A stretch of 64,000 nt of DNA. Origin: an uncultured Myxococcales bacterium (GTDB lineage Bacteria; Myxococcota; Kuafuiibacteriia; Kuafuiibacteriales; Kuafuiibacteriaceae). Positions 1-12,619 of the stretch are shown here, one piece after another. Position 1 is the first letter of the stretch. The number at the start of each line of letters is the position of its first letter. The notes below the pieces were generated by a model. That model did not search any database, was not told where the DNA came from, and saw only the letters and a list, made by a program, of their open reading frames with translations. Where the stretch lies: positions 50,449 through 114,448 of the forward strand of contig CAYYOT010000003.1 in the NCBI GenBank assembly GCA_964473255.1, given 5' to 3'. The position numbers and the translations under genes are program-made.

Positions 1-1172
1 TCCGCCGCCGCTCGAAGCCCGCTGGTGGTGATGGGAACGTCTTCGCGGATCAGTCGCCGAACCACGAGGTCCAAATAGGCGCGGTCGTCGGTCTGATCGC
101 GGATGATCTGATCCAGGCGGGCCAGGACGGCGACGGCGCGAGCGGTGACGGCGCCCCGGCTATCCCCCGTGGCCAGACTCGCGACCTTGTTCCCCCGGCG
201 CCGCAGGTCTCGATGGGTGCGGCGTCGTTCTTCGCCGCTCATACCGCCGCTCCGATACAGGACCTCGATGGCGTAGTACTCGGCCAGGCCTTCGACGATC
301 CAGTCTCCCCCCGGTCCCGACTTTGCTCCCATGAAGACGTGGGCCAGCTCGTGAAGGAGCGGGCTCGTGCCGTCGTCGTCGACCAAGGGGCGGTCGCGGT
401 GGACGAAAAGCGACTCCTGGCCGGAGAGCCCCCCCCGCCACATCGGGTCCCCGGCTCCGACGATGACGATCCGCGGAGGGAGCGCTCCCAAGACCGACTC
501 GAAAGCGGGCAGGGTCCAGCGCAGAAACGACCGGACTTCCATCAAGGCGAGGCCCAGGCGCCGGGTCGTGCAAAGGACGACCTCCGTCGTCGAGATCTCG
601 GCGACCTCGGTTTTCAGGCGCCCGGCCATCATCCATCCCGAGGGTCGAAGAAAGAAGCGACGGTCGTCGCGCAGCACGCGTCGGCCGTTGGTCTCCACCG
701 GGTGGCGGCTCACCAGCTTCCATCGCTTGGGGAGGACGAATCGTGCTTCCCCGGTCGAGGTGCTTCCGCCGACGAAGCGTGACGCGGCTGGGGGCACCAG
801 GTCGGAGCCGCGAAACAGCGCCCAGTTCGTGCCCATCCGGGCGTCGTAGCTCACCGCATCTCGGAGGTGATCGAGTCGGCTCGTCCATCGCAGCCGGCCG
901 CCCTGCGCGGGAACGTTCCAGGTTACGTATTCGTCACCTTCGGTCTCGATGACGCCATCCCCACGAAAGCTCGAATGCTGGTCCGGATCGATGTGAAAAC
1001 GCAGGAGCGAGATGCCGGGCCGGTCCTGCTGCACCCGCAGCTCCACCGTCGCCGCCCGCTCCGCGGTCTTCAGACGCACATCGTAGGCGAAGTGAACAGC
1101 CGTCGCCTCGGTGGTTCCGCTGGGACCGACTACCTGCGCGAGCGCCAGCCAAAGCCAAACCGGCGAACTCAT
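1..1172 (-). CDS. Secreted MA-clan (gluzincin, Peptidase_MA_2-like) HExxH metallopeptidase; the 3' end lies beyond the window start
   Basis: I translated the minus strand by hand from the ATG at 1172..1170 to the window edge and found no stops. The frame is missing from the ORF track because it leaves the window. The N-terminus MSSPVWLWLALAQVVGPSGTTEA looks like a signal peptide. The motif LLHELAHVF...DWIVEGLAEYY is an HExxH plus a downstream Glu about 20 residues later, which is the gluzincin signature. The ATG overlaps the stop of the upstream ATP-grasp gene (ATGA). Confidence 0.65.
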   Translation of the reverse strand, partial: MSSPVWLWLALAQVVGPSGTTEATAVHFAYDVRLKTAERAATVELRVQQDRPGISLLRFHIDPDQHSSFRGDGVIETEGDEYVTWNVPAQGGRLRWTSRLDHLRDAVSYDARMGTNWALFRGSDLVPPAASRFVGGSTSTGEARFVLPKRWKLVSRHPVETNGRRVLRDDRRFFLRPSGWMMAGRLKTEVAEISTTEVVLCTTRRLGLALMEVRSFLRWTLPAFESVLGALPPRIVIVGAGDPMWRGGLSGQESLFVHRDRPLVDDDGTSPLLHELAHVFMGAKSGPGGDWIVEGLAEYYAIEVLYRSGGMSGEERRRTHRDLRRRGNKVASLATGDSRGAVTARAVAVLARLDQIIRDQTDDRAYLDLVVRRLIREDVPITTSGLRAAA

Positions 1173-2113
1173 GAGCCCCACGCCCTCGCGAGTTCCCTCG
1201 ATATTTCGAGACGCTCGGCGACCTCGCGTTTGTCATCGCCCAGCCGGTCGACCGACGCGATCCGCGGGAGGAGCCCGGCCTGATTGCACAGCTGGATGGC
1301 CAGCCCCGGGCGCGCGTTCATTTCCAGGACGACCGGACCCAGTTCGGCGTCGATTACGACGTCGACGCCGAGATAGCCCATCTCCGTCCGATCGGACGCG
1401 GCCACCGCGATCTCGACCGTCCGCTCGAACTCCGGGATGCGCCGTCCCGGCAGGCGGGCACCAGTATCGGGATGATCGGTGATGGTACGATTTCGGACGA
1501 TGGCCGAACGCATGCGACCGGCGGCCAGATCGATGCCGACGCCGACCGCGCCTTGATGAAGGTTGGCTCGTCCGGCCGAAGCGCGCGTGGGCAAGCGGAC
1601 CATGCCCATGATCGGGCAGCCTCGGTACACGATGATGCGAACATCGGGTACGCCTTGGTAGACCACGGGGGCGAGGTCGGGGTGCACCCGCAGCCGCTCC
1701 TCGACCATGGCCATGTCGGCTTGTCCACCCAGGGCGTACAGACCCGAGATGATCCCCGAGGCGTGATACTGGACGTCGCTGCGCGACAATCGCCGACCGC
1801 CGCTTCTTTGATACACGGCGCCCTCGTGGCTCAGGATCACCATGATCCCGTTGCCCATCGCCCCGCGCGCCGGTTTCAGGACGAAATCGTCGAGCTCCTC
1901 CAGGCGGGTCATCAGGGCACCGAGCTCGAAATGGTGCTCGGCTTTTGCGAGCAGGCGCGGGACGGGGATGCCGGCGGCCGAGCACATGGCTTTGGTCTGC
2001 AGCTTGTTGTCGACCAGCGGATAGAGCTTTCGTCGATTCCACTTCGAGGTGAAATCGATGTTGCGCCGATTGATCCCGAGGATGCCCCGTTCGTGCAAGC
2101 GAGCAAAGATCAC
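1169..2113 (-). CDS. RimK-like ATP-grasp amidoligase (alpha-L-glutamate ligase-related protein, TIGR02291 type)
   Basis: This is the C-terminal 314 aa of ORF 1169..2527. The segment ERGILGINRRNIDFTSKWNRRKLYPLVDNKLQTKAM...GIPVP...KPARGAMGNGIMV...DVRIIVYRG...GVDVVID matches the conserved N-terminus and ATP-grasp core of the RimK-related family. No ATG lies near that point. A GTG at 2113 overlaps the stop of the upstream 7TM gene (GTGA), and a TTG at 2098 is an alternative start. The N-terminal 138 aa of the ORF are Arg-rich junk. Confidence 0.8.
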   Translation of the reverse strand: MIFARLHERGILGINRRNIDFTSKWNRRKLYPLVDNKLQTKAMCSAAGIPVPRLLAKAEHHFELGALMTRLEELDDFVLKPARGAMGNGIMVILSHEGAVYQRSGGRRLSRSDVQYHASGIISGLYALGGQADMAMVEERLRVHPDLAPVVYQGVPDVRIIVYRGCPIMGMVRLPTRASAGRANLHQGAVGVGIDLAAGRMRSAIVRNRTITDHPDTGARLPGRRIPEFERTVEIAVAASDRTEMGYLGVDVVIDAELGPVVLEMNARPGLAIQLCNQAGLLPRIASVDRLGDDKREVAERLEISRELARAWGS

Positions 2114-3738
2114 GGCTTGGAGCTCTCCGGCGGTGTCGGCTCGAAGTCTTCCATGGGATGGGTCTCCGTCGTTCCGCCGCGGACGGTCAGCATTCGGAAG
2201 CGAATGAGGTCGGTGACCCGAAAGCCCATGTATCCGCCGATGAATACGAGCAAGCCCATGATGACAAGGACGAGCTCGGGAAAGCCGAACATCACGTGCT
2301 CCGCGCGGGTGCTGCGAAAGAGTGGATAGGAGCAGACCGCGACCACGACCGACACGAGAAAGCGACTCAGAGCCTCGGTGAGCCCTTCCTCCGCCGTGAC
2401 GAGGTGGAAGCGTTCGATCATCATCGTCAAAACGACGATGGGAAAGACCACGCCAGCGAAGAAATCGCGTCGTCCCACGCTGTCGCCCAAGAGGGCGAGA
2501 CCCGCGACGCAGATGATGGTCAAACACAGCAGGAAGCTCACGCGGGGAACGACAAGCAGTCGCAGCCCATCCAAGAAGCGACGGGTCGCTACACCGATCA
2601 CGAGCACCGTACCCAGCATCGACAAGCCGAACACCAGCTGCGTCTCGCGGAGGGCCAAACCGAGCAAAATCGGCATGAAGGTTCCGAACGTGCGGACCCC
2701 GATGAAGTTGCGGAAGATCGAAACGATGATGGCTCCCAGCGGAATCAGAAGAAGGAGACGGAGCGCTTTTTGGGCGGGCAGCGGCAGCCGGTACAGCGAC
2801 AGCGACGCGAACACCACATTCTCGGGGATCATCATGTTCGCCAGCTCTTGGGGTCCGAGCCGCTCTTTCAGCGAGTAGAAGCGAACGTCGACTGCATCGA
2901 CGTTGAACGCCTCGACGATGTCGCCGGGCTCGTAGCGGAGGGCCAACAGGTTGTTGGAGCGCTCACCGAACAGGCGTGCCGACGTGGAAACCGGAATCCA
3001 CTCGCCGGCCAGCCAGACTTCGATCCACTGCACGAGATCAGGCTCCTCGTCCTCGACGAGCTCCAGTCCGCTGACCATTCGCGCCGGAATCCCGACGTTG
3101 CGGAGGAGCGTCGTGAGCAGCTTCGTCCTCCCCAGGCGGCTGCCCTCGCGCTCGACCAAGGTGAGAATGGCGTCGGATGGTCCATTGCGGACTTTGGCGA
3201 TCCGATGGTCGACGAAAGCAAAGACGGTTCGGACTCGTCCCGATGGGTCGTCGGTCGGAGGCAGAGCCAGCCCCTCCACGACGGTTTGCACGCGGGGTGA
3301 CTCGGCGGGAAACTCGGCGGTCGAGGCGAGGTAGCGTTCGGCCACGTCGGGCGGCACCGGGTTCGGCGTGGGCGCAACCGGGAGCTCGTAGGTCGCGCCG
3401 CTCAGGCGGGCCCGGAACGAGTAGATGACGCGGTGAATGCCGTCCAGTTCCCCGGACCACACCCCGAGGCGACCGGGCCCCTCGTTGTCGATGGATAGGT
3501 TGAGACCGTCCGACGACGTCGTTTCGTCGAATACGACTTGGTGGAGGTCGTTGCTGGGGAGCGCCGCCTGGACCGCGCCGGCGCCCGCACCGCGGGCGTT
3601 GATCTGAACCTCCACCTGCCACACGCCCTCGGGGTTGGAGGGGACCAACGGCAGGTTGAGTCCGAAGTACTTGTACGCAAAAAGCCCCCCTCCGACGAGA
3701 ACCAGCGCGCTGCCGACGATGAGCACGGGCCGATTCAT
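2110..3738 (-). CDS. Inactive transglutaminase-like domain fused to 7 transmembrane helices (Transglut_i_TM / 7TM_transglut architecture)
   Basis: ORF 2110..4017, trimmed to Met94 (MNRPVLIVGSALVLVGGGLFAY, a TM anchor). A large extracytoplasmic N-domain is followed by about seven hydrophobic helices in the C-terminal third (LLLLIPLGAIIVSIF, ILLGLALRETQLVFGLSMLGTVLVIGV, FLLCLTIICVAGLALL, FFAGVVFPIVVLTMMI, LVSVVVAVCSYPLF, LVLVIMGLLVFIGGYMGF). This gene class is the known partner of TIGR02291-type ATP-grasp ligases. Its ATG overlaps the stop of the upstream AstE/AspA gene. Confidence 0.7.
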   Translation of the reverse strand: MNRPVLIVGSALVLVGGGLFAYKYFGLNLPLVPSNPEGVWQVEVQINARGAGAGAVQAALPSNDLHQVVFDETTSSDGLNLSIDNEGPGRLGVWSGELDGIHRVIYSFRARLSGATYELPVAPTPNPVPPDVAERYLASTAEFPAESPRVQTVVEGLALPPTDDPSGRVRTVFAFVDHRIAKVRNGPSDAILTLVEREGSRLGRTKLLTTLLRNVGIPARMVSGLELVEDEEPDLVQWIEVWLAGEWIPVSTSARLFGERSNNLLALRYEPGDIVEAFNVDAVDVRFYSLKERLGPQELANMMIPENVVFASLSLYRLPLPAQKALRLLLLIPLGAIIVSIFRNFIGVRTFGTFMPILLGLALRETQLVFGLSMLGTVLVIGVATRRFLDGLRLLVVPRVSFLLCLTIICVAGLALLGDSVGRRDFFAGVVFPIVVLTMMIERFHLVTAEEGLTEALSRFLVSVVVAVCSYPLFRSTRAEHVMFGFPELVLVIMGLLVFIGGYMGFRVTDLIRFRMLTVRGGTTETHPMEDFEPTPPESSKP

Positions 3739-4880
3739 CAGAGCTCTTCGCCTTCCGAGTGTTCGGCTGCCGGGTCGTCGGTTTCGTCGACCGGAATGCT
3801 CTCCGTGGGATCGAAGCCGACGTGATACGCGGGAAAGCCGGGCAGGACGAGCTGTGGTTCGGACAGGCCGATGACCAGACCGCTGCGGGTCGCGACGATT
3901 TCGTAGCTCGTTTCGTCGAACGGTGACTGGACGACGCCGAGGATCTGGCCTTTCTCCACCGAATCGCCGAGCTGCACGCGGTTGGTCAAAATACCGCCGC
4001 GGTCCACTCGGATCCATCGCGACTGCAGGATGACCTCCGGGAGTTCGTCTGGATACGGCGGCAGCGTGAAGCGTCCCGACCTATCGGCCAGCGACGTCGT
4101 GACGTCGTGAACGACCCCTTCGATCACATCGAGCTGAAAGCGCATGGCCTCGCCGGCCTCGTAGGTTACGGCCGCCAGGCCGATCTCGTTCAAGGCTCGG
4201 CGCAGCATTCCGTCGCTTCCGTTCGAATGAACGATCATGGGGGGTGTCATGCGAAACGCGAGCTCCAGCGATGGGAGGTGCTCCGTATCGACCCGCACTT
4301 GCGGGAAGTTCGACCGGCGCGCCGAACCGGTGTGGAAGTCGATCGCTTGGTCGCACCACTGCTCGAGGAACGTGAAAACGCGGTACGCGACCCGAGATGC
4401 CGCGCTGCCCTTTCGTCGCCCGGGAAAATGCCGATTGAGGTCGCGGCGGTCGGGTAGGTCCCTCTCGCCCCGCCGAAACCCGTGGAGATTGACGACCGGA
4501 AGCCCGACGACCATCCCGCTGAGGCGGTCCGGGTCGAGTCGAGCCAAGACCCGGCGGACGGTCTCGATCCCGTTCAGCTCGTCCCCGTGCGTGCCGCCGG
4601 TCAGGCACACCGTGGGACCGGGCTGGTGTCCGCGCACCATCAAGACGGGAATCGCCAGGCGCTGACCCGAATAGGAGGCGCTCGTCACCAGCTCGGCGGC
4701 ACCTCGGGTGCCCGTAGAGAGCTTGGTGCCCTGGATCTTCACCGGGCCCCAGGGCGGTAACAGGGGTTTTTGCGGGCCTCCGGCCGGAGGCTCGGCGACC
4801 GCGCTCTTCTCGGGTCCAGCGGCCGCCAGCGCAACGCCGCCGGACATGAGGACAATCAGGGGGATCACTACGCTCCGCAT
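3738..4880 (-). CDS. Succinylglutamate desuccinylase / aspartoacylase (AstE/AspA) family zinc deacylase with an N-terminal signal peptide
   Basis: The motifs LTGGTHGDELNG ... HFPG ... DFHTG give the Zn-binding His/Glu pattern of the AstE/AspA (M14-like) family. The N-terminus MRSVVIPLIVLMSGGVALAAAGPE is signal-like. This is the first gene of a four-gene minus-strand cassette. Confidence 0.75.
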   Translation of the reverse strand: MRSVVIPLIVLMSGGVALAAAGPEKSAVAEPPAGGPQKPLLPPWGPVKIQGTKLSTGTRGAAELVTSASYSGQRLAIPVLMVRGHQPGPTVCLTGGTHGDELNGIETVRRVLARLDPDRLSGMVVGLPVVNLHGFRRGERDLPDRRDLNRHFPGRRKGSAASRVAYRVFTFLEQWCDQAIDFHTGSARRSNFPQVRVDTEHLPSLELAFRMTPPMIVHSNGSDGMLRRALNEIGLAAVTYEAGEAMRFQLDVIEGVVHDVTTSLADRSGRFTLPPYPDELPEVILQSRWIRVDRGGILTNRVQLGDSVEKGQILGVVQSPFDETSYEIVATRSGLVIGLSEPQLVLPGFPAYHVGFDPTESIPVDETDDPAAEHSEGEEL

Positions 4881-4995
4881 GCGGTCGAGGTCGGTCCAGG
4901 CACCGTCCAGCGGCCCCGAGTGTGCCCCAGGTCCGAGCCCGATCCGAGTCTCATCTTGCGATCGATAGCCGCGGCGGGTGTTCGGGTAACCTCGC

Positions 4996-5024
4996 TTGGA
5001 TACGACGGAATTCGATGCTATATC
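4996..5024 (+). promoter_or_regulatory. Candidate sigma70-like promoter for the dksA-like gene (TTGGAT, 17 nt spacer, TATATC); coordinates approximate
   Basis: A 4/6 match to TTGACA and a 4/6 match to TATAAT lie 17 nt apart, about 25 nt upstream of the ATG at 5049. They sit in the 170-bp divergent intergenic region between the AstE-like cassette and dksA-like. Confidence 0.25.
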
Positions 5025-5048
5025 CCCCGTCCCTCGCGGGAACCGCCG

Positions 5049-5450
5049 ATGACTACCCGAACGCGTCGTTCTGAAAAGGAAAAACCGCTCACCAAGAAGG
5101 AGCTCGAGTACTTCAAGAACAAACTCCTCGGCCTCCAGGAAGAAGTTCGCTCGCGGGTTCGCGACCGGGCGAGCACCGCCCGTATCGATGAGAACGACCT
5201 GATCGAGGAGATGGACCAGGCCAATCGCGCGACCGAGGAAGCTTTCAACATGCGGCTGCTCGACAAGGAAGTGAAGCTCCTCCGCGAGATCGAGGGCGCC
5301 CTCGCGAAGTTCGACGAGGGCACGTACGGGATCTGTGAGGGCACCGAGGAGCCGATCGAACGTCGCCGCCTGGAAGCCCGACCCTGGACTCGGTACTCGG
5401 TCGCTTACAAAGAGCAGCTCGAACGCGAGAAGAAGGGCCGCGCCCGCTAG
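5049..5450 (+). CDS. dksA: DksA/TraR-family transcription factor with an incomplete C4 zinc finger
   Basis: ORF 4770..5450 trimmed to Met94 (MTTRTRRSEKEKPL). A coiled-coil region (LLGLQEEVRSRVRD...) is followed by the DksA C-terminal motif YGICEGTEEPIERRRLEARPWTRYSVAYKEQ. Only one Cys is retained where DksA normally has CxxC...CxxC. Confidence 0.7.
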   Translation: MTTRTRRSEKEKPLTKKELEYFKNKLLGLQEEVRSRVRDRASTARIDENDLIEEMDQANRATEEAFNMRLLDKEVKLLREIEGALAKFDEGTYGICEGTEEPIERRRLEARPWTRYSVAYKEQLEREKKGRAR

Positions 5451-6727
5451 CCCGGTCCTGCGATGCCTCGAGGCACGGTCGGCCGCAGCGGATCCTCCGG
5501 TCCTCGGCGAGGAAGCCTCATGCGGATGACGAGTCCGTGGGGCGATGCCAGTCGGGCTTCGACCTTGCCTTCGTGGAGCTCGGCAATCTGTCGGGCGATC
5601 ATGAGGCCCAGGCCCCAGCCGGTCGCCTGCCTCCGATTGCGGCCACGGAAGAACGGTTCGAAGAGTTGGTCCAGCTCGCCGGGTTCCACCCCCGGCCCTC
5701 GATCCTCGACCTCCAGTCCGTCGGCCAGATGCCGAACCGTCGCCTGCGAGTCCGCCGGGGCGTACTTCTCGGCGTTCTGAACCAGATTCTTGAGCAAGCG
5801 CTTCAGCTGGGTGCGGTCACCCTGCACCGTGGTCGGCGCTCCCTCGACGTTCCACGTCAGGCGTCCACTGGATGTCTCGGCCAAGACTTCTTCCACCAGT
5901 TCCCCGAGGGGCACGGGGCGCAGGTCCACCGAGCGCTTTGAGAAGGACAGCCGAGAAAGGGTGAACAGCTCGTCGATCAGTCGGTCCAGCTCCTGAAGGT
6001 CGGCCTCCATGGCCGGTAGGCGTCCTGGTACCTCGGCTCGTTCTCGCATGAGCTCGAACTCCAAGCGCAGCCGGGCGAGCGGCGTTCGCAGCTCGTGGCT
6101 CATCCCCGCCATCAGCGTGCGCTCCGCGTCGAGCATGGCCTGCATGCGGTCCGCCATGCGATTGAATGCTCGGTGCGCTTCCCGCTGCTCGGGACTGCCC
6201 TCCGGCTCGAGACGGTGGCGAAGGTCGCCCTGCGCCATGCGCTCCATGCCGGTCAGGGTGGCCTTCAGGGGTCGGGTCAACCGGCCGGACAGCCACCAGG
6301 CGAAGGCGCCCAGCAGAGCGGCCAGTACGACCAGAGCCACGCCCAGCCGGCGCCCGACCGCACGGGCATCGAACCCGCGTCGGACCAGGAGCCACCCTCG
6401 GGAGAGCTCGGCCGCGGCCACGCCTTCGCCCCCCCGACACATCAAGAGCCGACGCCCATCCACGACGGTTGGGCGGCAGCGTTTGTGAAGTCGGGGCGGT
6501 GGCCGGCGACGAAGGTCGAGGCGCAGCCCGAGGCGACGGGACAGCTCGCGGGGATCGCGACCCTGCTCGATCTCGTTGGCCACGAACGCGACCTGCTGTT
6601 CGTAGGCCGTGACGAGATGACGAAGGACCGGACCGTGCAGGGTTCGCGCGACGATCGACCACGCCAAGAGCAACGCCAGGAGCACCACGCCGAACAGGAG
6701 CAGGGCGAGTCGCAGGCGCAGACTCAC
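5447..6727 (-). CDS. Sensor histidine kinase (TM, HAMP, HisKA, HATPase_c)
   Basis: The N-terminus is a TM helix, MSLRLRLALLLFGVVLLALLLAW. The H-box is AGMSHELRTPLARLRLEFELM. The C-terminus carries the G-boxes DRGPGVEPGELDQLFEPFFRG ... GWGLGLMIARQIAELHEG. The start overlaps the stop of the response-regulator gene. Confidence 0.85.
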   Translation of the reverse strand: MSLRLRLALLLFGVVLLALLLAWSIVARTLHGPVLRHLVTAYEQQVAFVANEIEQGRDPRELSRRLGLRLDLRRRPPPRLHKRCRPTVVDGRRLLMCRGGEGVAAAELSRGWLLVRRGFDARAVGRRLGVALVVLAALLGAFAWWLSGRLTRPLKATLTGMERMAQGDLRHRLEPEGSPEQREAHRAFNRMADRMQAMLDAERTLMAGMSHELRTPLARLRLEFELMRERAEVPGRLPAMEADLQELDRLIDELFTLSRLSFSKRSVDLRPVPLGELVEEVLAETSSGRLTWNVEGAPTTVQGDRTQLKRLLKNLVQNAEKYAPADSQATVRHLADGLEVEDRGPGVEPGELDQLFEPFFRGRNRRQATGWGLGLMIARQIAELHEGKVEARLASPHGLVIRMRLPRRGPEDPLRPTVPRGIAGPG

Positions 6728-7434
6728 CCGGCGGGCTCCCGGGGCACGAAGTAGCCAACGCCTCGCACCGTCTTCACCAGGCGTGGCCGCCGGGGGTCGT
6801 CGCCGATCTTGCGCCGGATGTGGCTCACGTGGACGTCGATCGAGCGGTCGAACGCCGCGAACTCGGCGCCTCGCGCCTCCTCCATGAGCCGCTCGCGGGG
6901 CACGACGCGGCCGGCGGCGGCTACGAGGGTCCGGAGAATGTCGAACTCGGTCGACGTCAGCTCGACCTCCACGCCGTCGAGATAGACGCCGCGCCGGGAG
7001 GGATCGACCCGCAAGCGCCCGGCCACGAGGCCGTCCTCCGCGTTCGAAGACGTGGCGCGCCGCAGCACGGCCTCGATGCGAGCGAGGAGTTCTCGGGGAT
7101 TGAAGGGCTTGGGAAGATAGTCGTCGGCCCCGACCTCGAGACCGACGATCCGGTCCGTGTCCTCGCCTCGCGCGGTGAGCATGACGATCGGGAGTCGCGA
7201 CGTGGCGCGGATGCGCCGGCAGACCTCGAGACCGTCGGCGCCGGGGAGCATCAGGTCCAAAACGACGAGGTCGAACGTCTCCTGCTGGAGACGTTCGAGC
7301 GCCGCCTCTCCCGACTCGACGGAGGCGACGGCGAAGCCGCGACCGCCGAGATACTCGGCCAGGAGTTCCCGGAGGCGCTCGTCGTCATCGACCACGAGCA
7401 GTCTCCGGGATGGCGAGGGGTCGGCCACGCTCAC
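6724..7434 (-). CDS. OmpR-family response regulator (receiver plus winged-helix)
   Basis: The receiver domain is LLVVDDDERLRELLAEYL...DLVVLDLMLPGADGLEVCRRIR...PIVMLTARGEDTDRIVGLEVGADDYLPKPF. The C-terminal trans_reg_C segment is LTSTEFDILRTLVAAAGRVVPRERL...VDVHVSHIRRKIGDD...VKTVRGVGY. Confidence 0.9.
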   Translation of the reverse strand: MSVADPSPSRRLLVVDDDERLRELLAEYLGGRGFAVASVESGEAALERLQQETFDLVVLDLMLPGADGLEVCRRIRATSRLPIVMLTARGEDTDRIVGLEVGADDYLPKPFNPRELLARIEAVLRRATSSNAEDGLVAGRLRVDPSRRGVYLDGVEVELTSTEFDILRTLVAAAGRVVPRERLMEEARGAEFAAFDRSIDVHVSHIRRKIGDDPRRPRLVKTVRGVGYFVPREPAG

Positions 7435-7883
7435 TCGGCCCAGCGCTGGCGCCGTCGCGACTCCGCTTGGTCCATCTTCTCGATCAGCGTCGCTCGCTGC
7501 TCATCGGTCAAGGTCGCGTGCAGCTGCAGCAGTCGGTCGATCATGGCGTGTCCCATCTTGGTCCTCGACTCTGCGATCTCATCCATGATCGCGTGGAGTC
7601 GGTCCTGATCGGGGTCGGGCTGGGACAGCTGAAGCTTGATCTCCTGCAACAGCCCCCGGTTCGACTCGTGCTGGGCCTTCATTTCGTCCCGAGCCTGCCG
7701 TCGCAGTCGGACCGCGAGCACCTCTTGGTCTTCGGTCAGGTCGAGGCTCGCGATGAGGCGCTGAAGCGCCATCCCCGGCCCTCCACCTCCATGCGGACCA
7801 CGTGCGTGGGCGACCAGGCCCAGCGCGACCAAAGCGGCGGCCAAGCCACCGGCGAGCGTTCCTCGGATGAGCAATGTTTTCAT
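7431..7883 (-). CDS. CpxP/Spy-like periplasmic LTxxQ-motif protein
   Basis: ORF 7431..7925 trimmed to Met15, MKTLLIRGTLAGGLAAALVALGLVAHA, which is a signal peptide. The RBS aaaggag lies 7 nt upstream. Two LTxxQ-type motifs are present (LDLTEDQ and ATLTDEQ). The gene lies directly upstream of, and co-oriented with, the regulator/kinase pair, as cpxP does with cpxRA. Confidence 0.7.
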   Translation of the reverse strand: MKTLLIRGTLAGGLAAALVALGLVAHARGPHGGGGPGMALQRLIASLDLTEDQEVLAVRLRRQARDEMKAQHESNRGLLQEIKLQLSQPDPDQDRLHAIMDEIAESRTKMGHAMIDRLLQLHATLTDEQRATLIEKMDQAESRRRQRWAE

Positions 7884-7899
7884 TATAGACTCCTTTCGA

Positions 7900-7917
7900 G
7901 ACGATGTTTGCTTCGTC
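7900..7917. promoter_or_regulatory. Inverted repeat GACGA-N8-TCGTC in the leader/promoter region of the cpxP-like operon; coordinates approximate
   Basis: The repeat has 5-bp perfect arms. It sits 17-35 nt upstream of the cpxP-like ATG. It is a candidate operator for the downstream OmpR-type regulator. Confidence 0.2.
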
Positions 7918-7948
7918 ATGCACACAGCCTAAGCCCGGACGCCGTATC

Positions 7949-8004: not shown

Positions 8005-8646
8005 TCACCCGCCCGCCCTCCGCACGACGGTGGCCAGGTCGGGCCACACTTCGACCCCCGAGGCGTTGAAGCGCGGAGCGTCCGGGGAACGTCCGGTGAG
8101 CCCGACCTGCAGGTCGGGCGGGAGCTTCACGCGCTCGATGCCGCTCACCGCATCCACGACGGGGGCGTCGTCGGTGACGTACGTCACGTCGATGGCGGCG
8201 ATGCGGGCCCGGCGGCCGATGGCGAGCTGAAAGAGGCGGGCGCATACGTGCTCGACGACATCGCCGGATACCTCCGGGCCGAGGAATGCGGCCACGACCT
8301 TCGGACTGACCGAAAGCACGGGCGTCAGACGCCGAGCGCGCTCCCGATGCCAGGCGTCGTTGCGTGTGGCCGCGCCGATCGCATGCGCGTTGGCCGCGAC
8401 CTGGACGAGGTCGGATGTCAGGCGACGCGCCGCCTCGGAGGGGGCGTCGAGCTCGAGCCACCGAGCGAGGGGGGCGCTCGCCGGGCGCCCGTGCTCCCCC
8501 GCTTCGCGCGCCTCGAGAGCCACGCGCTCCAGGAGCGAGGTGCGCGCCTCGAGGTCGCCGGCGGTCGCGGCCGCCCACAGCGGCCACCACGCGGCTCGAA
8601 GGTCGCGCTCCGCCCCCGGGTTCGTGTCCTTCCATCCGTCGGTCAC
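8005..8646 (-). CDS. Hypothetical protein (about 213 aa) with no confidently recognised domain
   Basis: ORF 8005..8778 trimmed to the GTG at 8646 (VTDGWKDTNPG...). It is the only non-junk frame across 8000-8650, and its amino-acid composition is protein-like with conserved-looking blocks (IAAIDVTYVTDDAPVVDAVSGIERV). The competing plus-strand ORF 7984..8673 and minus-strand ORF 7916..9211 are Arg/Gly-rich. Confidence 0.35.
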   Translation of the reverse strand: MTDGWKDTNPGAERDLRAAWWPLWAAATAGDLEARTSLLERVALEAREAGEHGRPASAPLARWLELDAPSEAARRLTSDLVQVAANAHAIGAATRNDAWHRERARRLTPVLSVSPKVVAAFLGPEVSGDVVEHVCARLFQLAIGRRARIAAIDVTYVTDDAPVVDAVSGIERVKLPPDLQVGLTGRSPDAPRFNASGVEVWPDLATVVRRAGG

Positions 8647-8704
8647 ACCCGCAGTATACCTTCGCTCGCTTGACGCCGGACTCCGGCCTCCCGAACGTCC
8701 CGTC

Positions 8705-9664
8705 GTGACCTTCGACGTCTTGGTCTTGATGGACCCGATCGAGCGCATCGACATCCGCGCCGACTCGACCTTCGTCATGCTTGTCGAGGCTCAGGCCCGC
8801 GGGCATCGGATCTACTACGCCCACCCCAAGGACCTTTATCTCCAGGGCGACTCGCCGGGGGTCCGGGCGCGTTCCCTCGAGGTCGAGCCGGTCGAGGGGG
8901 CACACTATCGGCTCGGCGATGCCCGCACGATCGAGCTCTCGGCCTTCGGCGCGATCCTGATGCGCAAAGACCCGCCCTTCGATACCGATTACCTCCTCGC
9001 AACCCTCGTTCTGGACCGCGTCGACCGCCGGCGGGTCGTGCTCTTCAACGACCCTCGGGCGCTTCGCGACCTCAACGAGAAGATGTCGGCGCTGCGCTGG
9101 TCTCATCTCATGCCGCCTACCCTCATCACGGCCGACCATGAGCGCATTCGAGCCTTCATCGGCGAGCACGGCGCGTGCGTGATCAAGCCGCTCCTGGATG
9201 CCGGAGGTCACGGCATTCTACGTCTCGAACGGAACGACAAGAACACGCGCTCGGCGTTGGATCTGCTCACGCACCAGGGCCGAACGATGATCGAGGTCCA
9301 GGCCTACGTGGCGGCCGTCGAGCAGGGCGACAAGCGGATCCTCTTGGTGGACGGCGACGCGGCCGGCGCGATCAACCGAGTGCCTTCGCCTTCCGATCTC
9401 GCCGCGAACATGCACGTTGGCGGGCGGGCCGAAGCCACGGAACTCACCGAACGAGACCAGGAGATATGCCGAACGCTCGGGCCCGAGCTCGAGGCTCTGG
9501 GCCTCATCTTCGTCGGTCTCGATGTGATCGGCGGCTATTTGACCGAGATCAACATCACCAGTCCGACCGGTCTGCAGGAGTACACTCGGTTCACCGGAGT
9601 ACGGGTTGAGAAGTTGATCCTGGACAGCATCGCGCGGCGCCATCGCCAGCTCGGGGACGCCTGA
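8705..9664 (+). CDS. gshB: Glutathione synthetase (prokaryotic ATP-grasp GshB)
   Basis: ORF 8360..9664 trimmed to the GTG at 8705 (VTFDVLVLMDPIERIDIRADSTF...). It aligns along its length with E. coli GshB (MIKLGIVMDPIANINIKKDSSF...ILMRKDPPFDT...DKRILLVDGD...GLIFVGLDVIG..LTEINVTSPT). The upstream 115 aa of the ORF are junk. Confidence 0.85.
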   Translation: MTFDVLVLMDPIERIDIRADSTFVMLVEAQARGHRIYYAHPKDLYLQGDSPGVRARSLEVEPVEGAHYRLGDARTIELSAFGAILMRKDPPFDTDYLLATLVLDRVDRRRVVLFNDPRALRDLNEKMSALRWSHLMPPTLITADHERIRAFIGEHGACVIKPLLDAGGHGILRLERNDKNTRSALDLLTHQGRTMIEVQAYVAAVEQGDKRILLVDGDAAGAINRVPSPSDLAANMHVGGRAEATELTERDQEICRTLGPELEALGLIFVGLDVIGGYLTEINITSPTGLQEYTRFTGVRVEKLILDSIARRHRQLGDA

Positions 9665-9665
9665 A

Positions 9666-10217
9666 GTGGCGTTCGTGGATCTGTCTCGATCTCGACTGGT
9701 CCTGAAGGCTCTTCTCGCGGGCCCACCGGCCGTGGGCAAGACTCAACGCCTCCTGCAGGTCGCCCGCCGGGGAGGACACGAGACGTTCGGTATGACGCCG
9801 CTCGGCCCCCAGAGGATGGCTTCGCTGCCCCTCGCGTCGGAGCGCACCGAGCGAGACGTCGAGCTGGAGGTCTACGAGTGGCACGGTCCGGAGCGTGCCG
9901 ATGTGCGCGCGCGGGGGCTCTTCGTCGGTCTGGATGGACTGGTCTTCATCGCCGACGCCCGTGAAGACCGCATGGTGGATAGCGTGCGTCAGCTCGAGTT
10001 CCTGGTGGCCCAGGCCGGTAAGTCCCGCATGGCTCGCCTCGCGAGTCTCCTGGTACTCGGGCATCGAGATGAGGGCCTGCTCCGCCTCGCCTCCTACGCG
10101 GACGGGTTGACAGGAGTTCAGTGGAGTCATCGCTTCGAGGGGGGCATCGAGGATGAAGAGGGCTTCATCGAAGCGCTCCGGCTGTATGCGGAAGTCATGC
10201 TGCTGCGTACCTCGTGA
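9666..10217 (+). CDS. Ras/MglA-like small GTPase-fold protein with degenerate G3/G4 motifs
   Basis: The GTG start lies 1 nt after the gshB stop. It has a P-loop LLAGPPAVGKT. The positions where DxxG and NKxD are expected read YEWHG and LGHRD. Confidence 0.5.
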   Translation: MAFVDLSRSRLVLKALLAGPPAVGKTQRLLQVARRGGHETFGMTPLGPQRMASLPLASERTERDVELEVYEWHGPERADVRARGLFVGLDGLVFIADAREDRMVDSVRQLEFLVAQAGKSRMARLASLLVLGHRDEGLLRLASYADGLTGVQWSHRFEGGIEDEEGFIEALRLYAEVMLLRTS

Positions 10218-10246
10218 AGCGACGAGTTCCGGGTTAGAACCGCGTC

Positions 10247-12619
10247 ATGCGTACTCGGTGGCCGCTCGGTATCGTCATCGTGGTGTCGGCCTGCAACAGT
10301 GGATCGGACGACGACCGACCGAAGATCGACGGCCGAGTGGTCGACGCTACGGACGACCGTCCGATCGCGGGCGCGCGGGTCGCGACCAGCCCCGAAACCG
10401 AGACGGTGCAGACCGCCAGCGACGGAACGTTTGAGATCGTGCGCGGCGTGCGTCCCAACCGGTTGGTCCGCGTGACGGCGCGGGCGGAGGGATTCGACGT
10501 CGAGAGTCAGGATGTGACCCCGAGCGTCGGCGGCGGAACCAACCTCGTCTTTCGTCTAGAGCCGCGCGTGATCTGCGTTCCCGGTTCGCGTCGCTGCGCT
10601 CAGGGCGGCGAAACCGATGGCTTTCAGGTATGCAACGAGCGCGGGAATGCGTACGACCCGGCGATCGCGTGCACGGACACCGAAGTGTGCGTCCCGGAGG
10701 CTCCCGGCTGTTCACCCGCTCGCCGGGTCACGGTGACCAGCGAAGGTGGCCTGGTCTCGTCTTCGCCCTCCGGAATCTCCTGCGCGCCGACTTGTGAGGC
10801 GTCGTTCGTCGACGGGACGTTCCTGAGGCTGACGGCCCAGCCATTCCCTGGGGGGAGCTTCTCCGGGTGGACGGGAGACTGCTCGGTCCAGGGGACGGAG
10901 CCCGTCTGCGACCTTGTCGTCGACCGCGATCTGGCGGTGGGCGCTTCCTTCCTCGAGACCCTGGCCACCGTCGAGGTCGAGTTCACCACCGAAGATGGAG
11001 CGAGTGGCGAGGTTCAACTCGACGGGACTCGGGACGGCGAGGCGCTGTCCGAGACCTGCCGAGACGACTGCGCCATCATTTTCGATCGCGGCACTCCGGT
11101 CGACCTCGCCGCCCGGGCGGACCCGGGTTTCGAGTTCGCGGGGTGGGGTGACGACTGTGAGGGTGAAGGCGACAACGAAAACTGCCGGTTGACTCTGGAC
11201 GGAGCACGAAGGGCCGGGGTGCGCTTCACGCCGGTCCGCTTCCGCCTGACCGCCGACGTGGCCGAAGGGGCGGGCACGATCGCCTCGACGCCGGCGGGGA
11301 TCGACTGTGGCTCGGACTGCGAAGCGGACTTCAACGAAGGCACGACGGTATCTTTGGTGGCGACGCCGGCACCCAGCAATCGGTTCATCGGCTGGTCCGG
11401 GGCGTGTTCGGGAAGCGTCGCCGATGCGTGCACGGTCACCATGGACCGCGACCTGGCGGTGACGGCCCGCTTCGAGGGCGAGTCGTATGATCTTACGGTC
11501 AGCCGCACGGGGGATGGTACCGGTACGGTTACTTCGAGCCCATCGGGCATCGACTGTGGTGGTGATTGCTCCCAGGTCTACGGCGGCGGACAGGCGGTCA
11601 CGCTCACCGCTTCCGCGGCCGCCGGAAACGTCTTTACCGGCTGGGGCGGCGACTGCTCGGCGTCCGGGGCCGACCCGTCGTGCATGCTGGTCATGGATGC
11701 GGCTCGGTCCGTGTCGGCGGCGTTCGACGCGGTTGCTCTCGACGTGACCGTGTCCGTGACCGGTGCGGGGCGAGTGCGGTCGACCCCTCCCGGCATCGAC
11801 TGTCCGGGGTCGTGTACGGCTGGATTCGTCGCCGGCACCTCCTTGACCTTCGAGGCCGCCCCGGACGTCGACCAAGGCGTGTCCGCGTGGACCGGGCCGT
11901 GCGCTTCCGCCGGCCGCGATACGAGCTGCACTTTCGTCGTCGATCGGGCGGCTTCGGTCGACGTCGCCTTCGACGACTTCTTCGTCCTCCCGCTGCGCGC
12001 CGATATGTCGTGCGAAGCCCTCTTTCGCTTCGAGGCAGCAGCGCCGAGGCAGAATAGCTGCGGGGGGGGCGGCAACGCCGTCGAAGTGGGCAGCTGGACC
12101 GCAGCCGTTTCGCGCTCGAGCGCGCTCGGTGACGCATACCGGCCGGGAGCGGAAGGCGATGCGCTGGACACCACCGTGCTGCTCGGCGACGCGGCGCCCT
12201 TCACCTTCGAGCTTTCCGTCCGTCGGACGGGTACCGCCTTCGGTGGCTTCGGCTCGGGCGTTCTGGTCTCGGACCGGGATGCCGCCGACCCGGGAGGGCC
12301 GGGATTCGAGCTGCTCGCCCTCGACGACGGAGCCGTCGAGCTTCAGACCTTCACCAGCAGCGTCACTTTTTCATCGGTACGCACCTCGACCGATACGTTG
12401 GCCGTCGATCGATGGGTCCACCTTACAGTCGTTCGAAGGAGTCAGGACGTCGAGTTGTTCGTGGATGGAGCGTCGGCGGCCAGTCTGGGCAGCGCTCCAA
12501 ACTGGACGGCTTCGTCGAGTACGGCGATCGTAGGAGCTCGACGCGATGGTTCCGGATACCGACAGACCCTGCAGGGTGACGTCGACGAGATTCGCTTCAG
12601 CAGTGTGGCTCGCCGGTAG
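10247..12619 (+). CDS. Large lipoprotein: N-terminal CarboxypepD_reg-like domain, five tandem Cys-pair repeats of about 90 aa, and a C-terminal LamG/concanavalin-like domain
   Basis: The lipobox is MRTRWPLGIVIVVSAC. The segment DGRVVDATDDRPIAGARVATSPETE...DGTFEI is carboxypeptidase-regulatory-like. The repeated unit is S.PSGIDCG.DC...F..GT.V.L.A.P..G..F.GW.G.C, seen at SSPSGISCAPTCEA, STPAGIDCGSDCEA, SSPSGIDCGGDCSQ and STPPGIDCPGSCTA (InlB B-repeat-like). The C-terminal DVDEIRFSS is LamG-like. Confidence 0.75.
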   Translation: MRTRWPLGIVIVVSACNSGSDDDRPKIDGRVVDATDDRPIAGARVATSPETETVQTASDGTFEIVRGVRPNRLVRVTARAEGFDVESQDVTPSVGGGTNLVFRLEPRVICVPGSRRCAQGGETDGFQVCNERGNAYDPAIACTDTEVCVPEAPGCSPARRVTVTSEGGLVSSSPSGISCAPTCEASFVDGTFLRLTAQPFPGGSFSGWTGDCSVQGTEPVCDLVVDRDLAVGASFLETLATVEVEFTTEDGASGEVQLDGTRDGEALSETCRDDCAIIFDRGTPVDLAARADPGFEFAGWGDDCEGEGDNENCRLTLDGARRAGVRFTPVRFRLTADVAEGAGTIASTPAGIDCGSDCEADFNEGTTVSLVATPAPSNRFIGWSGACSGSVADACTVTMDRDLAVTARFEGESYDLTVSRTGDGTGTVTSSPSGIDCGGDCSQVYGGGQAVTLTASAAAGNVFTGWGGDCSASGADPSCMLVMDAARSVSAAFDAVALDVTVSVTGAGRVRSTPPGIDCPGSCTAGFVAGTSLTFEAAPDVDQGVSAWTGPCASAGRDTSCTFVVDRAASVDVAFDDFFVLPLRADMSCEALFRFEAAAPRQNSCGGGGNAVEVGSWTAAVSRSSALGDAYRPGAEGDALDTTVLLGDAAPFTFELSVRRTGTAFGGFGSGVLVSDRDAADPGGPGFELLALDDGAVELQTFTSSVTFSSVRTSTDTLAVDRWVHLTVVRRSQDVELFVDGASAASLGSAPNWTASSSTAIVGARRDGSGYRQTLQGDVDEIRFSSVARR

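Follow-up and report, generated by a model that had tools for sequence, protein, structure and literature searches.

A Myxococcota variant of the rlo envelope system with two predicted exported zinc hydrolases in place of the RloA protease

The 64-kb stretch of DNA analysed here (the window, whose 64 kb are the extent of all whole-window scans) comes from contig CAYYOT010000003.1 of an uncultured Myxococcales bacterium and begins with a cassette of four genes, g1 to g4, built around homologues of RloB and RloC from the rloABC operon of Pseudomonas aeruginosa. The locus is probably the Myxococcota form of the rlo envelope system, in which exported metallo-hydrolases would take the degrading role of the protease RloA on a product that depends on RloC. 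It is a lineage-specific variant of a system whose characterisation has been only genetic, and two exported zinc hydrolases stand in it where the secreted aspartic protease would be. This is not a new principle; it gives independent leverage on what RloB and RloC make.

The rloABC operon was characterised in P. aeruginosa by Lormand et al. (mBio 2025; PMC12239564) and a model for RloB exists in NCBIfam, which overturns the statement of a sequence-only reading of this DNA that no function was known for any variant of the system. RloA is a secreted retropepsin-like protease (PF05618, with the old label 'putative ATP-dependent Zn protease') that in vitro cuts runs of at least eight glutamates, RloB is an inner-membrane inactive transglutaminase/7TM protein and RloC is a cytoplasmic RimK-related ATP-grasp enzyme (PMC12239564). 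Deletion of all three RloA paralogues, two of which are encoded away from rloBC, results in hypo-osmotic lethality, defects in shape and biofilm formation and antibiotic sensitivity, and these defects are suppressed by deletion of rloB or rloC (PMC12239564). The cycle put forward in the sequence-only reading, with a cytoplasmic ligase that adds and periplasmic hydrolases that remove, matches these genetics. Neither Myxococcota nor a deacylase, carboxypeptidase or aminopeptidase partner is mentioned in PMC12239564, and no description of the Myxococcota-type variant was found in the searchable literature, a coverage that does not extend to the 2009 amidoligase survey, which may include such neighbourhoods.

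Results

The cassette is a tightly packed operon with an RloB/RloC core

Four consecutive minus-strand open reading frames (ORFs) occupy positions 1-4880 of the window, with coordinates identical to those proposed from the sequence at the outset:

g1: 4880-3738, minus strand; 380 amino acids (aa), predicted exported AstE/AspA-family (M14-like) zinc deacylase or carboxypeptidase-type hydrolase
g2: 3738-2110, minus strand; 542 aa, RloB-like membrane protein
g3: 2113-1169, minus strand, GTG start; 314 aa, RloC-like cytoplasmic ATP-grasp ligase
g4: 1172 to before position 1, minus strand; predicted exported M61/M1-like gluzincin of an unnamed family

The window contains 390 of the 412 codons of g4, the last 22 codons and the stop lying beyond its start; the full-length protein corresponds to P0001 (412 aa, 100% identity). 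The genes had been proposed to form one overlapping unit joined by ATGA or GTGA sequences, and this was correct for g2/g3 (GTGA, a 4-nt overlap at 2113-2110) and for g3/g4 (ATGA, a 4-nt overlap at 1172-1169), whereas the g1/g2 junction, as read off the sequence, is TGATG with a 1-nt overlap. The GTG start of g3 is in line with the starts of its orthologues in the alignment, and the junctions are as tight in two orthologous loci, L001 and L002, which are 46-57% identical. The four genes are a conserved, tightly packed operon.

The g2 protein matched PF14402 (E 2.9e-58), PF14400 (E 2.8e-09) and PF01841 (E 7.4e-10). In its predicted layout, an N-terminal transmembrane helix leads to an inactive transglutaminase-like domain in the periplasm, and a multi-helix (7TM) domain, in which multiple hydrophobic helices were recognised, forms the C-terminal part. 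No conserved Cys or His was found in the transglutaminase region, which fits an inactive domain. When compared with NCBIfam NF052267 ('osmotic stress tolerance membrane protein RloB'), g2 aligned over its full length with 187.6 bits, against a cut-off of 900 bits, and is best classed from this score as an RloB homologue that is not a member at the strict 'exception' level of the model (orthologue of Pseudomonas RloB).

The g3 protein exceeded the cut-off of TIGR02291 ('alpha-L-glutamate ligase-like'; 356.3 versus 314.2 bits) and matched PF14397 with an E of 2e-75, and no hydrophobic segment was found in it. Its identity is 43-50% to RloC from canonical rloABC loci and 50-66% to the proteins of Myxococcota-type loci. 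The similarity to RimK is confined to a 40-residue match of 32 bits; TIGR00768 gave 40.7 bits against a cut-off of 143.4, and the domain scan found no RimK_N domain in g3. Judged by these profiles and alignments, g2 is assigned as a homologue of RloB and g3 as a homologue of RloC, both from the rloABC operon of Pseudomonas, and the ATP-grasp/7TM-inactive-transglutaminase core that had been recognised from the sequence, TIGR02291 type included, was confirmed.

The cassette follows a logic like that of RimK/RimB, the ribosomal protein S6 polyglutamylation system with its retropepsin trimmer, as an ATP-grasp alpha-L-glutamate ligase is paired in both cases with a removing hydrolase. However, g3 is not RimK, the hydrolases of the cassette carry export signals and a membrane protein is integral to the unit.

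RloA is absent where g4 is present

An RloC alignment scan with one genome per species yielded 80 loci, whose ORFs (six-frame) were classified with hidden Markov models (HMMs) for RloA, RloB, RloC, AstE and g4; the RloA HMM was built from four Pfam-verified or Pfam-typical RloA sequences. The Myxococcota-type set consisted of 18 loci (L001-L017 and L020) plus the window, 16 of them with upstream sequence and 17 reaching past RloC. The 64 loci of other type came from Gamma-, Beta- and Alphaproteobacteria, Desulfobacterales, Nitrospirales, Omnitrophota, Planctomycetota and others.

A PF05618 (RloA) gene was found directly upstream of RloB in 54 of the 64 loci outside the Myxococcota type, in agreement with the retropepsin-like partner that had been named as usual for this core. 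It was found there in none of the Myxococcota-type loci for which upstream sequence exists (0/16). The absence of this partner from the cassette, also noted beforehand, was extended to the whole window, among whose ORFs the RloA HMM gave no match. The distribution of g4 is the reverse: every Myxococcota-type locus that continues past RloC (17/17) has it as the next gene downstream, and it was detected in 0/64 of the others. Of the 16 Myxococcota-type loci in which the upstream side of RloB is covered, 13 have an AstE-like gene immediately next to it on that side. Thus, the absence of RloA coincides with the presence of g4, and usually of AstE too. In a neighbour-joining tree of RloC, the Myxococcota-type loci group together as one clade, so the partner set, which had been taken for a peculiarity of this locus, is in fact the standard arrangement of the whole clade.

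The order of the cassette is kept across loci that are 37-66% identical and have differing flanks. In L001 and L002, the AstE-RloB-RloC-g4 order is accompanied by tight junctions and unrelated flanking genes, and the g4 homologues are 47% identical. Conservation of the gene order in relatives, which had been suggested as a check, was therefore observed, and the RloB-RloC-g4 order in all 17 loci reaching that far shows that the adjacency is not due to chance. Furthermore, a more divergent g4 homologue is encoded convergently to RloC, which indicates that the link survives rearrangement.

Compared with rloABC of P. aeruginosa, the cassette has the same RloB and RloC core, co-oriented and tightly packed genes and exported hydrolases in the operon. 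In contrast, RloA is missing from the window, an AstE/AspA-type zinc hydrolase is encoded upstream and an M61/M1-like zinc peptidase downstream, so that the order is hydrolase-B-C-hydrolase instead of A-B-C. The genetic phenotypes are known only for P. aeruginosa, and the Myxococcota variant is known from its genes.

PF05618 genes do occur near the Myxococcota-type cassettes of L006 and L014. They were considered as displaced RloA copies and rejected, since neither carries a signal peptide and the L014 copy is located beside rimK, so that both look RimB-like. Three loci outside the clade (L024, L030 and L070; two Omnitrophota and one gammaproteobacterium) have RloB-RloC pairs with no adjacent peptidase gene on either side; their hydrolase may be encoded elsewhere in the genome, like two of the three RloA paralogues of P. 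aeruginosa.

g1 is an AstE/AspA-type hydrolase with a signal peptide

The g1 protein matched PF24827 (AstE_AspA_cat) with an E of 3.9e-37 and 128 bits (cut-off 25), which corroborates its earlier assignment as an AstE/AspA deacylase. Its scores are far below the NCBIfam equivalog cut-offs for DoeB (78.5 versus 402.7 bits), AspA (24.2 versus 180), AstE (22.1 versus 305.7) and MpaA (20.7 versus 157). In the alignment with the DoeB structure 6twl (E 7e-19), the match covered the catalytic domain with its zinc ligands as well as the C-terminal barrel region, and the metal and catalytic motifs HGDE...DFH...YEAGE were preserved. At the N-terminus, a hydrophobic segment at residues 4-22 is preceded by 'MR', as is typical of a signal peptide.

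Hydrolysis of N-acyl-Glu and N-acyl-Asp amides is the established chemistry of AstE and AspA. With the AstE/AspA/DoeB deacylases (the M14-like succinylglutamate desuccinylase/aspartoacylase family), g1 has these three features in common, but it has a signal peptide and is not the equivalog of any characterised member, and its context is a peptide-ligase operon and not arginine or ectoine catabolism.

g4 defines an unnamed family of M61/M1-like gluzincins

No family match was obtained for g4, partial or full length, in Pfam and NCBIfam up to an E of 1, and its previous assignment to PF13485 had to be abandoned as the full-length protein gave no match to that model at E<=1. The lone Pfam signal was a sub-threshold match to Peptidase_M61 (PF05299; E 0.17, 12.7 bits versus a 22-bit cut-off), PF01433 (M1) was not matched in the full-length Pfam scan, and the family profile retrieved nothing from the PDB sequences beyond chance coiled-coil matches.

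The gluzincin nature proposed for g4 was supported by its predicted fold, and not by a Pfam model. The AlphaFold2 model (31 homologues; pLDDT 91, pTM 0.87) has two domains, a beta-rich one at the N-terminus and, after it, a catalytic one of the thermolysin-like kind. The top Foldseek matches were the M61 aminopeptidases 7xyo (E 9.8e-18) and 8j9c (E 2e-15) and the aminopeptidase-N family structure 4fgm (E 1.2e-17, TMq 0.71), followed by the M1 enzymes IRAP, ERAP and F3, with E values ranging overall from 1e-17 to 1e-13. The model thus identifies g4 as a predicted gluzincin with the M61/M1 aminopeptidase fold that belongs to an unnamed family.

The motifs HELAH (274-278) and EGLAEYY (294-300) of g4 are invariant in the family, and the residues H274, E275, H278, E294 and E298, as well as the segment D242-P-x-W-R-G-G-L-S250 about 30 residues upstream, are invariant in 31 sequences. 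A hydrophobic N-terminus is present in 114 of 120 g4 homologues, with K/R ahead of it in 97 of the 114. Of the features predicted at the outset for g1 and g4, the intact zinc-hydrolase motifs were borne out by the DoeB alignment and by these invariant residues; the signal peptides proved to be clear in g1 and, for g4, recognisable at the level of the family. Both proteins are accordingly taken, from their sequences, as putative exported enzymes with intact zinc and catalytic motifs.

With the M61 and M1 enzymes of clan MA(E), g4 shares the two-domain fold (Foldseek E 1e-17, TMq up to 0.71), and its HExxH is followed by a WxxEGxAE glutamate helix like the 'WLNEGFA' motif of M1. On the other hand, its sequence similarity to these enzymes is under the family thresholds, without a PDB match for the profile, and the protein is shorter (412 versus 520-870 aa) and lacks the PDZ or C-terminal helical domain. 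It also appears to differ from M1 in the motif GAGDPMWRGGLSG, which stands in the likely place of GxMEN, the exopeptidase motif that binds the substrate N-terminus and whose position in M1 enzymes we take to be about 34 residues before HExxH. The invariant GAGDPMWRGG of g4 lies about 34 residues before HExxH and may, by position, correspond to GxMEN.

When clustered at 50% identity, the family amounts to 1543 clusters with E<=1e-3, 227 of them with E<=1e-30. Thus, a sizeable metallopeptidase family without a Pfam or NCBIfam model is now defined, with a confident structural model and a clear genomic context.

The same hydrolase families in other settings

An exported AstE-like gene also follows a canonical rloA-rloB-rloC set in five loci from gammaproteobacterial metagenome-assembled genomes (MAGs; L023, L025, L034, L039 and L067). 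The encoded proteins are 40-57% identical to g1 (40-45% in the four full-length matches); they are about 450 aa long and have an N-terminal extension of about 150 residues that is absent from g1.

In L014 (region 9449-12448), a genuine RimK (RimK_N + RimK + TrkA_C; 9449-10759) is encoded immediately after the Myxococcota-type cassette, and its gene overlaps one for a cytoplasmic AstE-family protein that is 35% identical to g1. The RimB-like PF05618 gene of this locus lies on the strand opposite to the rimK-AstE pair. The overlap with rimK, together with the exported AstE next to RloC, shows that AstE-type enzymes partner both RimK (cytoplasmic copy) and RloC (exported copy), mirroring the RimB and RloA retropepsins. 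The searchable literature contained no bacterial paper in which RimK is paired with succinylglutamate desuccinylase, aspartoacylase or COG3608. The AstE-like partner, which had been presented as novel for the cassette, is therefore found both downstream of rloABC and beside a genuine rimK.

In a Vulgatibacter incomptus MAG (L018:2065-8970), RloBC is preceded by an S41 peptidase of 1046 aa that also carries PDZ and CARDB domains and followed by a stand-alone inactive transglutaminase-like protein. The metagenomic protein P0361 (L087:3491-6481; 996 aa) consists of an M14 zinc carboxypeptidase domain fused to a g4-family domain; its 8.4-kb contig contains no RloBC, and the neighbouring genes are without Pfam domains. 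Taken together, the AstE gene downstream of rloABC, the S41 peptidase of L018 and the P0361 fusion indicate that the exported peptidases recruited by the RloBC core vary from lineage to lineage.

Proposed mechanism

In the mechanism that we propose, RloC would use ATP to make a glutamate-rich peptide or peptide tail, a product suggested by its relationship to RimK and by the in vitro specificity of RloA. RloB would couple this product to the periplasmic side, and the product would then need to be degraded or trimmed. In the Myxococcota-type clade, two metallo-hydrolases would have taken over this degradation from an aspartic protease of the endo-acting type. Of the two, the M61/M1-like g4 would probably work from the N-terminal end, as an aminopeptidase does, whereas the AstE/AspA-like g1 would probably release C-terminal acidic residues in the manner of a carboxypeptidase, because its family hydrolyses N-acyl-Glu and N-acyl-Asp amide bonds.

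The clade offers a natural experiment, as a retropepsin was replaced in it by two mechanistically unrelated zinc hydrolases. This replacement, the pairing with an S41 peptidase and the additional AstE in five gammaproteobacterial loci suggest that the conserved need is the degradation of an RloB- and RloC-dependent, peptide-like product. The AstE/AspA-type partner would point to a free C-terminal acidic residue in this product and the M61/M1-type partner to a free N-terminus, and both g1 and g4 provide new enzymes with which the product can be probed. In P. aeruginosa, the system is important for tolerating osmotic stress and beta-lactams and for forming biofilms.

A more speculative extension, which we regard as possible but doubtful, is that Myxococcota, and by extension the many other RloBC carriers, keep up a pool in the periplasm that consists of non-ribosomal poly-alpha-glutamate or of envelope components that are polyglutamylated. 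This material would be made by RloC, RloB would pass it across the membrane and its turnover would be essential, being carried out in this clade by a two-ended exopeptidase pair with g4 at the N-terminus and the AstE-like enzyme at the C-terminus. If this were true, an anionic polymer would be cycled in the periplasm to control osmotic state and cell shape, and the modules that degrade it (retropepsin, M14-like, M61-like and S41) would be interchangeable.

Weighing the evidence

Several observations weigh against the assignment of RloA's role to g1 and g4. Polyglutamate is an in vitro substrate of RloA, and no product of RloC has been identified in any organism; the specificity and the exo or endo mode of g1 and g4 are inferred from family and fold alone. 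The export of the product by RloB is an assumption, as the 7TM domain showed no resemblance to a known transporter fold. Nothing in the data spoke for the suggestion that the ligase might add amino acids to a loop of the 7TM protein. The N-terminus of g4 itself is short and hydrophobic without K/R, which makes a weak signal peptide, and the GxMEN exopeptidase motif of M1 is not clearly present in g4, which has GAGDPMW instead. The absence of RloA was established for 64 kb, so that a secreted RloA could be encoded elsewhere in the genome.

Other points on the same side also speak for a rival explanation, in which the hydrolases act on proteins (the periplasmic domain of RloB or other envelope proteins) or scavenge nutrient peptides and are merely co-regulated with RloBC. 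The AstE-like gene is dispensable in 3 of the 16 clade loci (L005, L007 and L008). Close AstE homologues stand alone in Marinobacter and Wenzhouxiangella, and a distant g4 relative is found beside an M28 peptidase with no RloBC nearby, so neither hydrolase family is exclusive to the system. The net charges are about −9 for g1, about +5 for g4 (family median +7) and about −14 for the periplasmic domain of RloB, values unlike those of polyanion binders, although the charges were not an informative test. However, no clade locus that extends far enough lacks the link between g4 and RloC, which is seen in a convergent arrangement too, and the start/stop overlaps have been conserved. RloA was lost exactly where g4 was gained, and AstE is paired with a genuine RimK as well. 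This explanation was considered quite unlikely.

The most serious rival, still unlikely though slightly less so, is that the ligase and the hydrolases remodel the cell wall, acting on peptidoglycan stem peptides or precursors in the manner of MpaA or a glycyl aminopeptidase, and not on a polyglutamate-like polymer. Cell shape is defective in rlo mutants, which are also sensitive to beta-lactams, and peptidoglycan homeostasis was raised by the authors as a possibility (PMC12239564). In the same direction, MpaA, a murein tripeptide amidase, is weakly matched by g1 (E 1.7e-4), the M61 enzymes are glycyl aminopeptidases by name, and an S41 C-terminal processing peptidase takes the place of the partners in L018. 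Nevertheless, the MpaA match remains at 20.7 bits against a cut-off of 157, RloC belongs to the RimK-related alpha-L-glutamate-ligase group and not to the Mur/Ddl ligases, the displaced RloA needs at least eight consecutive glutamates in vitro, and no peptidoglycan genes are conserved beside the cassette in L001 and L002. The present data contain nothing that speaks positively for this rival.

The best structural match of g4, 7xyo from Myxococcus fulvus, is an M61 aminopeptidase discussed in a review on leader removal in RiPPs (peptides made by the ribosome that carry post-translational modifications), and ATP-grasp enzymes are known from graspetide pathways. Both facts would suit a RiPP-like or secreted-peptide cluster, in which the ATP-grasp enzyme modifies a ribosomal precursor, the peptidases cut the leader and the 7TM protein exports the product. 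This appears highly improbable: no conserved small ORF accompanies the cassette in L001, L002 and the window, g3 is a RimK-type ligase (TIGR02291) and not a graspetide macrocyclase, and in Pseudomonas this core serves as a housekeeping system of the envelope (PMC12239564). Finally, each of the gene families can occur alone elsewhere, but a coincidental adjacency of four unrelated genes is hardly credible and is already refuted by the conserved order, as both this order and the start/stop overlaps are kept across loci of 37-66% identity with different flanks.

Genes flanking the cassette

The region upstream of g1 contains the following features:

Intergenic region: 4881..5050, no strand; about 170 bp between the cassette and a divergent DksA-like gene, presumed from its position alone to be the promoter region of the operon
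HAMP histidine kinase: 5447-6727, minus strand
OmpR-type response regulator: 6724-7434, minus strand
LTXXQ/CpxP-like periplasmic protein: 7431-7925, minus strand

A sigma-70 consensus scan gave no match in 4881..5050, and no promoter or terminator was found when positions 4700-5500 were scanned. The divergent gene (4770-5450, plus strand) encodes a DksA/TraR-like protein (PF21157 and PF01258), and the closest relatives, L003 and L020, have copies of it with 88-90% identity at the corresponding place.

The three genes at 5447-7925 (minus strand) are joined by start/stop overlaps and bear a likeness to a Cpx-type envelope-stress module. This module was found beside the cassette only in the closest relatives, with the kinase alone in L003, where the locus ends, and with the kinase and the response regulator in L020. 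The Cpx-like two-component system was set aside as a candidate regulator of the cassette because this neighbour is conserved only in these two closest relatives. In Vibrio cholerae, the rlo genes are reportedly under the control of the two-component system VxrAB (PMC12239564). Further away, at 8360-9664 on the plus strand, a match to glutathione synthetase (GSH-S_N and GSH-S_ATP) corresponds to another ATP-grasp ligase, unrelated to the cassette.

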